A stretch of DNA of 64,000 nucleotides from Escherichia coli (GTDB taxonomy: Bacteria; Pseudomonadota; Gammaproteobacteria; Enterobacterales; Enterobacteriaceae). The translations under genes were made by a program, and so were the position numbers. The notes beneath the pieces are model-generated. The model ran no database searches, was not told the DNA's origin, and saw only the letters and a program-made list of their open reading frames with translations. Shown one piece after another: positions 26,507 to 27,951 of this stretch; position 1 is the stretch's first letter; every line of letters begins with the position of its first letter. The stretch lies in assembly GCF_001677475.2 (NCBI RefSeq), contig NZ_CP015229.1; one strand, 5' to 3'.

Positions 26507-26902
<396 letters not shown>

Positions 26903-26943
26903 CACTTTTCGGTTTACTGTGGTAGAGTAACCGTGAAGACAAA

Positions 26944-27127
26944 ATTTCTCTGAGATGTTCGCAAGCGGGCCAGTCCCCTGAGCCGATATTTCATACCACA
27001 AGAATGTGGCGCTCCGCGGTTGGTGAGCATGCTCGGTCCGTCCGAGAAGCCTTAAAACTGCGACGACACATTCACCTTGAACCAAGGGTTCAAGGGTTAC
27101 AGCCTGCGGCGGCATCTCGGAGATTCC
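26944..27127 (+). ncRNA. ssrS: 6S RNA
   Basis: Matches the E. coli 6S RNA as I remember it from ATTTCTCTGAGATGTTCGCAAGCGGGCCAGTCCCC to GGCATCTCGGAGATTCC; ends approximate to a few nt. Confidence 0.9.
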
Positions 27128-27201
27128 CTTCTTATCTGGCACCAGCCATGACGCAACTACCAGAACTCCCACTGACATTATCCCGACAAGAAATCCGCAA
27201 A

Positions 27202-27750
27202 ATGATTCGGCAACGTCGTCGTGCGTTAACGCCGGAACAACAGCAGGAAATGGGTCAACAAGCCGCTACCCGGATGATGACGTATCCCCCGGTGGTGATG
27301 GCACATACGGTCGCTGTATTCCTCTCTTTTGATGGCGAACTCGACACCCAGCCACTCATAGAACAACTCTGGCGCGCCGGTAAGCGCGTATATCTTCCAG
27401 TTTTGCATCCCTTTAGTGCCGGTAATTTGCTGTTCCTGAATTACCATCCGCAAAGCGAACTGGTGATGAACAGGTTGAAGATCCATGAGCCAAAACTGGA
27501 TGTGCGTGACGTGCTACCCCTTTCCCGATTAGACGTGTTGATCACACCGCTGGTCGCCTTTGATGAGTACGGTCAGCGCCTGGGAATGGGCGGTGGTTTT
27601 TATGATCGGACCTTACAAAACTGGCAGCGCTATCAAATGCAACCGGTGGGTTATGCGCATGATTGTCAGTTGGTGGAAAAACTCCCCGTTGAAGAGTGGG
27701 ATATCCCACTTCCTGCGGTGGTTACACCGTCGAAAGTCTGGGAGTGGTAA
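27202..27750 (+). CDS. fau: 5-formyltetrahydrofolate cyclo-ligase, 182 aa
   Basis: 3' part of ORF 27004..27750; start at MIRQRRRALT (ATG 27202) lies outside the 6S RNA and gives the K-12 length. Confidence 0.85.
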   Translation: MIRQRRRALTPEQQQEMGQQAATRMMTYPPVVMAHTVAVFLSFDGELDTQPLIEQLWRAGKRVYLPVLHPFSAGNLLFLNYHPQSELVMNRLKIHEPKLDVRDVLPLSRLDVLITPLVAFDEYGQRLGMGGGFYDRTLQNWQRYQMQPVGYAHDCQLVEKLPVEEWDIPLPAVVTPSKVWEW

Positions 27751-27810
27751 GGGCGACACACCTGCATCGCCCTGATTGACATCGTTGATTCTTTAACCTA
27801 ATTTAGTGAG

Positions 27811-27951
27811 TAAGGGTAAGGGAGGATTGCTCCTCCCCTGAGACTGACTGTTAATAAGCTGGGAAACTTATGAGTAACAGTACAATCAGTATGATGACAA
27901 GTCGCATCATAACCCTTCTCCTTTAAGCCCTCGCTTCGGTGAGGGCTTTTC
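27811..27951 (+). ncRNA. sibC: Sib-family antitoxin sRNA (SibC), antisense to ibsC
   Basis: Promoter TTGACA (27776-27781), 17-nt spacer, TAATTT (27799-27804); terminator hairpin AGCCCTCGCTTCGGTGAGGGCT plus T-run at 27926-27951; ends approximate. Confidence 0.65.
27851..27910 (-). CDS. ibsC: type I toxin peptide IbsC, 19 aa (MMRLVIILIVLLLISFPAY as translated here)
   Basis: Minus-strand ATG 27910..27908 to TAA 27853..27851; short hydrophobic peptide fully inside the antisense sRNA. Confidence 0.7.
   Translation of the reverse strand: MMRLVIILIVLLLISFPAY

Follow-up and report, generated by a model that had tools for sequence, protein, structure and literature searches.

The closest described system is the ssrS-fau (ygfA) unit of Escherichia coli K-12 (b2911-b2912), in which the genes are arranged as zapA-ssrS-fau-sibC/ibsC-serA. 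Binding of the sigma-70 RNA polymerase holoenzyme and templating of pRNA have been established for the 6S RNA of K-12 (PMC3299989) and Rho is reported to terminate ssrS transcripts within ygfA (Chae et al. 2011). The curated K-12 record (NC_000913.3 b2912, NP_417387.3; 3056241-3056789) assigns to fau 549 nt and a product of 182 aa, the form found on 571 contigs and represented in UniRef by the Swiss-Prot-derived 5FCL_ECOLI. A longer product came from tetracycline-inhibited ribosome profiling (TetRP) of E. coli K-12 (Nakahigashi 2016; PMC4909307), where ygfA is among the roughly 150 genes given a different start: row 100 of Table S2 gives an ATG at 3054209 (U00096.2), shifted by -54 and filed as '1. 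new site', with a 200-aa product beginning MTQLPELPLTLSRQEIRKMIRQ..., and Table S5 lists the gene again as 'alt-N'(new)' with 200 aa. The 200-aa start is thus already known, being present in RefSeq/PGAP and NCBIfam and having been reported experimentally in 2016.

At the protein level, the solved members of the 5-FCL/MTHFS family are 2jcb (B. anthracis), 1ydm (B. subtilis YqgN), 3hxt and 3hy3 (human) and 1sou (Aquifex), to which Fau is 23-30% identical. The N-terminal helix of Fau, in which a basic residue precedes x-x-[LI]-R, aligns to the very start of these proteins. Unlike them, the enterobacterial Fau has a variable tail of 10-12 residues before helix 1.

The ssrS-fau locus and its neighbours

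In the window, that is, the whole stretch of 64,000 nt of E. coli DNA that was analysed, the gene order was the same as in K-12, with zapA, ssrS and fau following each other as listed in Table 1. The strain is not K-12: the locus was 98.9% identical to that of K-12 over 901 nt of DNA and Fau differed at a few residues (...WQRYQMQP... here, ...WQHYKTQP... in K-12). The best match was E. coli EC42405 (99.9% identity), and the locus was present in 5425 of 5426 complete E. coli genomes. The zapA-ssrS-fau arrangement is the textbook enterobacterial one and is already known.

A covariance-model search with RF00013, which the sequence-only reading had proposed, gave a full-length match (model positions 1-187 of 187, + strand) of 139.8 bits with E = 2e-29. 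The score lay above the gathering score of 46.4 and the match covered the closing stem, the central bubble and the terminal stem. Over its 184 nt this 6S RNA was 100% identical to that of K-12, and it is predicted to bind the sigma-70 holoenzyme and to template pRNA, as established for the K-12 RNA. Upstream of ssrS, a sigma-70-like promoter was the sole match of a consensus scan in 1.5 kb, yet 1.4 matches were expected in shuffled sequence, which makes it weak evidence taken alone. Its 3' edge is some 7 nt short of position 26935, and it fits the known proximal ssrS promoter. Transcripts from the proximal promoter carry a short 5' leader on 6S RNA, and a purine-rich pre-6S leader (GTGAAGACAAA) was kept across genera.

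In the set of 80 Enterobacterales species, 79 loci had 6S RNA upstream of fau. The sole locus with a broken ssrS-fau linkage was that of Superficieibacter electus (NZ_PQGD01000004.1), where neither blastn nor Rfam detected 6S RNA within about 1.4 kb upstream of fau.

As in K-12, the SibC antitoxin RNA was localised in the interval that separates fau from serA, and it is overlapped by the type I toxin gene ibsC on the opposite strand. Some E. coli strains had an extra insertion of about 390 nt here with a second Ibs-family toxin (H22-H27, two pieces over 1293 nt). In the Yersinia pestis locus (L076), the sRNA Ysr224 (RF02770, 128.5 bits; 2189-2295, - strand) was found downstream of fau, in the place that SibC occupies in Escherichia, Citrobacter and Klebsiella.

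Table 1. Features of the ssrS-fau region, in coordinates of the window
Feature	Coordinates	Strand	Basis or remark
zapA	26573-26902		upstream neighbour of 6S RNA
Antisense ORF, 108 aa	26852-27178	-	spans the whole 6S gene
Sigma-70-like promoter, ATGACA-18-TAGAGT with TG	26899-26928	+	consensus scan, 9 of 12 matches, extended -10
ssrS (6S RNA gene)	26944-27127	+	RF00013 match and RefSeq E. coli annotation at the same place
248-aa ORF	27004-27750	+	mechanical ORF list; ATG start at 6S position 61; translation includes MWRSAVGEHARSVREALK...
ORF 5' extension, predicted non-coding	27004-27147	+	48 codons, 41 plus one base inside 6S
Spacer, 6S 3' end to fau ATG	27128-27147	+	20 nt, pyrimidine-rich, G-poor, no Shine-Dalgarno
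fau (ygfA), 5-formyltetrahydrofolate cyclo-ligase, 200 aa	27148-27750	+	best-supported CDS
Predicted N-terminal peptide of the 200-aa Fau			(M)TQLPELPLTLSR (MTQLPELPL...)
Region of the two-codon insertion in the Fau tail	27163-27174
Codons R13-Q-E-I-R17 (R61-R65 in ORF numbering)	27184-27198	+	start of helix 1; invariant Arg codon at 27196-27198
Internal Met19 codon (Met67 in ORF numbering)	27202-27204	+	start of the curated K-12 record, 182 aa, MIRQRRRALT...
SibC antitoxin RNA	27776-27926	+	RF00113, 138.2 bits
ibsC, type I toxin gene	about 27851-27910	-	overlaps SibC

Start codon of fau

The sequence-only reading held that 6S RNA sits inside a spurious 248-aa ORF which begins within the RNA gene, and that fau starts downstream of it, most likely at ATG 27202, which clears 6S RNA and gives the K-12 length. 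The downstream location of the start was borne out, and ATG 27202 does coincide with the start of b2912; the choice of that codon was not supported. Only ATGs 27004 and 27202 had been weighed, and a third one in the same frame, ATG 27148 (MTQLPELPLTLSRQEIRK...), had been overlooked. This ATG lies 20 nt after the 3' end of 6S RNA, at the same distance as in K-12, and gives a product of 200 aa. Taken together, the comparative, profile, structural and profiling evidence makes it very probable that fau is translated from ATG 27148, that the 248-codon ORF is an artefact and that ATG 27202 encodes an internal methionine, Met19.

RefSeq/PGAP annotates fau from ATG 27148 and not from 27202. The annotated gene has 603 nt and 200 codons for amino acids in E. 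coli (198 in one strain lacking two codons). In all the PGAP records sampled, a derivative of K-12 MG1655 among them, it begins 21 nt past the final base of 6S RNA. The 200-aa form was found on at least 1000 contigs, under RefSeq 'MULTISPECIES' names.

For the comparison, the fau loci of the 80 species were collected, 6S RNA was placed by blastn and the fau frame was extended upstream; in 13 loci the covariance model gave exactly the same 6S ends. All 80 species had an in-frame ATG after 6S RNA and upstream of the conserved R-x-x-[ILV]-R motif, exactly 10 codons upstream of it in 72 of them, and the codons for R13 to R17 varied at third positions only (71 species), the invariance of R13, R17 and the in-class ATG being partly circular, since the loci were anchored on the motif R..[ILV]R..[IVT]R and grouped into a '10-codon class'. 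The anchor was present in all loci, however, and the alignments across the family described below do not depend on it. In E. coli and E. albertii the ATG was 12 codons from the motif, owing to an in-frame insertion of two codons. The tail reads LPELPLTLS there and LPELxLS in other genera, and at least one E. coli strain (NZ_CP148323.1) is without the insertion and has a 198-aa Fau; this indel polymorphism falls where the curated K-12 record reads non-coding sequence.

The stretch between the two ATGs showed the substitution pattern of a gene. In the disputed codons 10-16, the seven before the Met67 position, diversity at the three codon positions was 0.26/0.11/0.59, close to the 0.20/0.16/0.57 of the undisputed fau body, and it was flat (0.59/0.53/0.62) in the 18 nt of spacer before the ATG. 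The ratio of synonymous to nonsynonymous single-nucleotide codon differences was 6693:1701 for these seven codons, 48703:11144 for the fau body and 1311:2358 for the spacer, indicating that the codons between ATG 27148 and ATG 27202 evolve as coding sequence. These data describe what is conserved, and not the behaviour of E. coli ribosomes in every condition.

Protein profiles also reached upstream of Met19. Fau matched PF01812 with 161.4 bits (cut-off 27; profile 1-186 of 186) and TIGR02727 with 178.2 bits (cut-off 84.9; profile 1-182 of 182), and position 1 of both profiles fell on ORF residue 61, six residues upstream of Met67. The NF007661 equivalog matched ORF residues 52-248 with 443.7 bits (cut-off 343; profile 2-198 of 198). 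Homologues in the PDB aligned from ORF residue 60-62, residues 9-25 of human MTHFS corresponding to ORF residues 60-76. The window gene is accordingly placed in the 5-FCL family by these matches, and an ATP-dependent conversion of 5-formyl-THF to 5,10-methenyl-THF is predicted for its product.

The N-terminal alignment of Fau homologues, which had been proposed as a check of ATG 27202, spoke against that codon. Among 130 representatives from a library clustered at no more than 50% identity (200-aa numbering), Arg stood at position 17 in 128, Lys or Arg at position 13 in 106, Leu or Ile at position 16 in 118 and Met at position 19 in one; a single representative began at or after the Met19 column. 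Thirteen columns were invariant in alignment A3 of 115 sequences (R17, E64, E114, P134, R144, G146, G148, G150, Y152, D153, G168, Q174 and W184), and the 200-aa product carried all of these residues, including the R144-G-x-G-x-G-x-Y-D core. The invariant Arg presumably has a role in phosphate or ATP binding.

An AF2 model of the 200-aa Fau made with the 115-sequence alignment reached a pLDDT of 96.4 and a pTM of 0.91; it replaced an earlier run with a shallow 17-sequence alignment (pLDDT 56), which was discarded. Residues 1-10 formed a less confident tail (pLDDT 70) and residues 13-25 formed helix 1 (pLDDT about 97), so modelled that R17 sits in the first half of the helix and Met19 in its middle. 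The top 12 Foldseek hits were all 5-FCL/MTHFS structures (2jcb: E = 1.2e-17, TM 0.85/0.90, rmsd 1.9 A), and the model superposed on the solved structures over 189-191 columns, beyond what 182 residues could supply. By this model, Fau has the MTHFS fold.

In the TetRP data, the reported shift leads to the same codon, since 27202 minus 54 is 27148. The signal at the new site in the three samples was 150.5/4.68/0.62, against 0/1.75/0.33 at the annotated site, with low depth at the weakly expressed ygfA and uneven replicates. The ygfA entry of PMC4909307 records no N-terminal peptide for either start, and the supplements of TRAINSPOTTER N-terminomics and INRI-seq have no ygfA/fau entry. The TetRP re-annotation thus gives the same start in a single low-depth supplementary row, and the comparative, profile and structural support assembled here goes beyond it.

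Against ATG 27148 it can be said that the curated K-12 reference and 5FCL_ECOLI use 182 aa, and that no Shine-Dalgarno sequence precedes it. ATG 27202 is equally without one, and so is ATG 27004: the best anti-Shine-Dalgarno duplexes for ATGs 27004, 27148 and 27202 were -0.7, -1.5 and -0.7 kcal/mol, against -7.3 kcal/mol for zapA. Shine-Dalgarno scoring therefore failed as a discriminator among the three ATGs.

The internal ATG and the frame through 6S RNA

Two readings give ATG 27202 a role in initiation. According to the first, initiation in Escherichia would be dual, with a minor 182-aa isoform lacking R13 and R17 made from ATG 27202 beside the main 200-aa product. The codon is indeed an ATG in E. 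coli, in Salmonella and in a handful of further genera (9 of 80 species), the annotated site gave a small non-zero TetRP signal in two of the three samples, and Nakahigashi (2016) reported signal at both sites in 22 of 67 re-examined genes. The same authors, however, filed ygfA as a new site and not as dual, and the internal ATG lacks a Shine-Dalgarno sequence. The equivalent codon was Leu in 31 species, Gln in 12, Thr in 11, His in seven and others in the rest, with GTG or TTG in none; this free variation among close relatives implies that no selection maintains an internal start. Without the invariant Arg, the short product is unlikely to be active. We consider dual initiation unlikely.

Still less probable is the second reading, the one preferred earlier from the sequence, in which fau starts only at ATG 27202 and the upstream 54 nt are an untranslated leader. 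It agrees with b2912 and with the UniRef representative, and its start clears 6S RNA. However, 71 of the 80 species have no start codon at this place, the supposed leader shows the coding-type substitution pattern, and the shorter product would lose six residues of the Pfam and TIGRFAM domain, have helix 1 truncated and lack the Arg conserved in 128 of 130 homologues. The TetRP signal at ATG 27202 was below that of the -54 site, and no Shine-Dalgarno sequence stands before it. With translation from ATG 27148 as the preferred reading, the curated b2912 and the Swiss-Prot 5FCL_ECOLI appear to be 18 residues too short and to miss the invariant Arg.

As for the 248-aa ORF, its frame across 6S RNA behaved as the sequence-only reading had anticipated. 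The 3' end of 6S RNA and the fau ATG were 15-28 nt apart in 70 of the 79 loci, and the remainder of this distance modulo 3 was evenly spread (24/31/24 of the 79 loci), so that the conserved end of the RNA was seen translated in each of the three frames (RHIHLEPRVQGLQPAAASRRFP, TKGSRVTACGGISEIP and NYDDTFTLNQGFKGYSLRRHLGDS), according to genus, ahead of the same MT... start. The fau frame met a stop inside 6S RNA in nearly all species outside Escherichia, opening at 6S position 113, 121 or 138 in most genera, and in the 80-species set it was open across the entire RNA only in E. coli and E. albertii. Homologues conserving the 6S-encoded extension were looked for in the 80 species and none was found. 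Neither did residues 1-51 of the ORF match any Pfam, TIGRFAM or NCBIfam profile, nor residues 1-48 any homologue save the identical Escherichia sequence. The 248-codon ORF would thus be an accident of Escherichia sequence, in which no in-frame stop crosses 6S RNA and an ATG occurs by chance at position 61, and is predicted not to be translated as such.

A coding gene that overlaps 6S RNA on the same strand and adds 48 residues to the N-terminus of Fau was therefore rejected as next to impossible, for although in E. coli and E. albertii an open frame runs from ATG 27004 and automatic pipelines call it, this ATG has no Shine-Dalgarno sequence and lies within an abundant, highly structured stable RNA, the frame at the junction is not conserved and is closed by stops in other genera, and the product, without homologues for its extension, is known only from unnamed automatic calls.

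The exact 248-aa product was found on 53 contigs, all of them such calls in Logan/ENA, and a cluster of 2588 members has a 248-aa sequence as its representative. Over-extension by automatic annotation, which had been foreseen, is thus real in practice. Three 256-aa proteins from Logan assemblies (P0003, P0010 and P0014) were extended through 6S RNA and, owing to a frameshift near residue 183, had an altered C-terminus (...TPWSPL...GDTPASP); errors of assembly or sequencing on top of the same start-site artefact are the probable cause. The antisense ORF across the 6S gene could likewise mislead gene callers.

The spacer between ssrS and fau and its possible role

The sequence between 6S RNA and fau was a pyrimidine tract throughout the genera compared. 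In 71 loci with a short spacer it consisted of 41% C, 35% T and 8% G, and its first 9 nt were essentially free of G (59 unique loci). Over the first 80 nt after 6S RNA, C and G amounted to 34% and 14%, against 27% and 29% in the fau body. No Shine-Dalgarno sequence was found in the spacer of any genus compared. The base before the fau ATG was C in 41 of 52 short-spacer loci and T in the rest. Tight spacing of about 20 nt is not universal: the 6S-to-fau distance was 59-125 nt in Klebsiella/Raoultella (L029, L036, L048, L062 and L063), in Yersinia pestis and in two further loci (L038 and L056).

We also considered an extended precursor stem formed by the purine leader and the pyrimidine trailer. 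The mean duplex energy was -4.65 kcal/mol, against -4.0 +/- 2.0 kcal/mol with shuffled trailers; this is indistinguishable from an effect of composition, and the stem is not claimed.

The composition of the spacer resembles that of a Rho loading site, and the start without a Shine-Dalgarno sequence that it leads into would be poorly translated. The spacer may be a rut site, a determinant of 6S 3' processing, or both. The two genes ssrS and fau are co-transcribed, and no intrinsic terminator-like site was found between them. Very probably fau is translated from ATG 27148 to give the 200-aa 5-formyltetrahydrofolate cyclo-ligase, in which residues 1-12 form the variable tail and helix 1 begins at R13 and bears the family-invariant R17. 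The lack of a Shine-Dalgarno sequence in a C-rich, G-poor tract would hold translation of fau low, the weak initiation at 27148 may expose the nascent RNA to Rho, and Fau would be made only from read-through transcripts.

A further step, which we put forward tentatively and regard as possible rather than probable, is that the G-free tract and the fau start, which come immediately after 6S RNA in nearly all Enterobacterales, form one dual-purpose element, serving both as the rut site for the Rho termination that defines the 3' end of the 6S precursor and as the initiation region of fau. Loading of ribosomes at ATG 27148 and loading of Rho would then compete, coupling 6S maturation and termination to the expression of fau and hence to folate salvage. 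If this were true, a start 54 nt further upstream would alter the reading of the published experiments on ssrS-ygfA termination and on the 'start-codon mutant'.

The practical consequences of the upstream start are small and it represents no new kind of biology. Cloning or modelling of Fau from the 182-aa entries could yield a truncated, possibly inactive protein, and the ygfA 'start-codon' mutants used in 6S studies could target the wrong codon. The 248-aa Fau of Escherichia, which does arise when genes are called without prior masking of stable RNAs, offers a clean test case. With its start 20 nt from the mature 3' end of 6S RNA, in the C-rich zone of the reported Rho termination of ssrS, fau is so placed that the position of its start codon bears on the tie between fau expression and 6S biogenesis.
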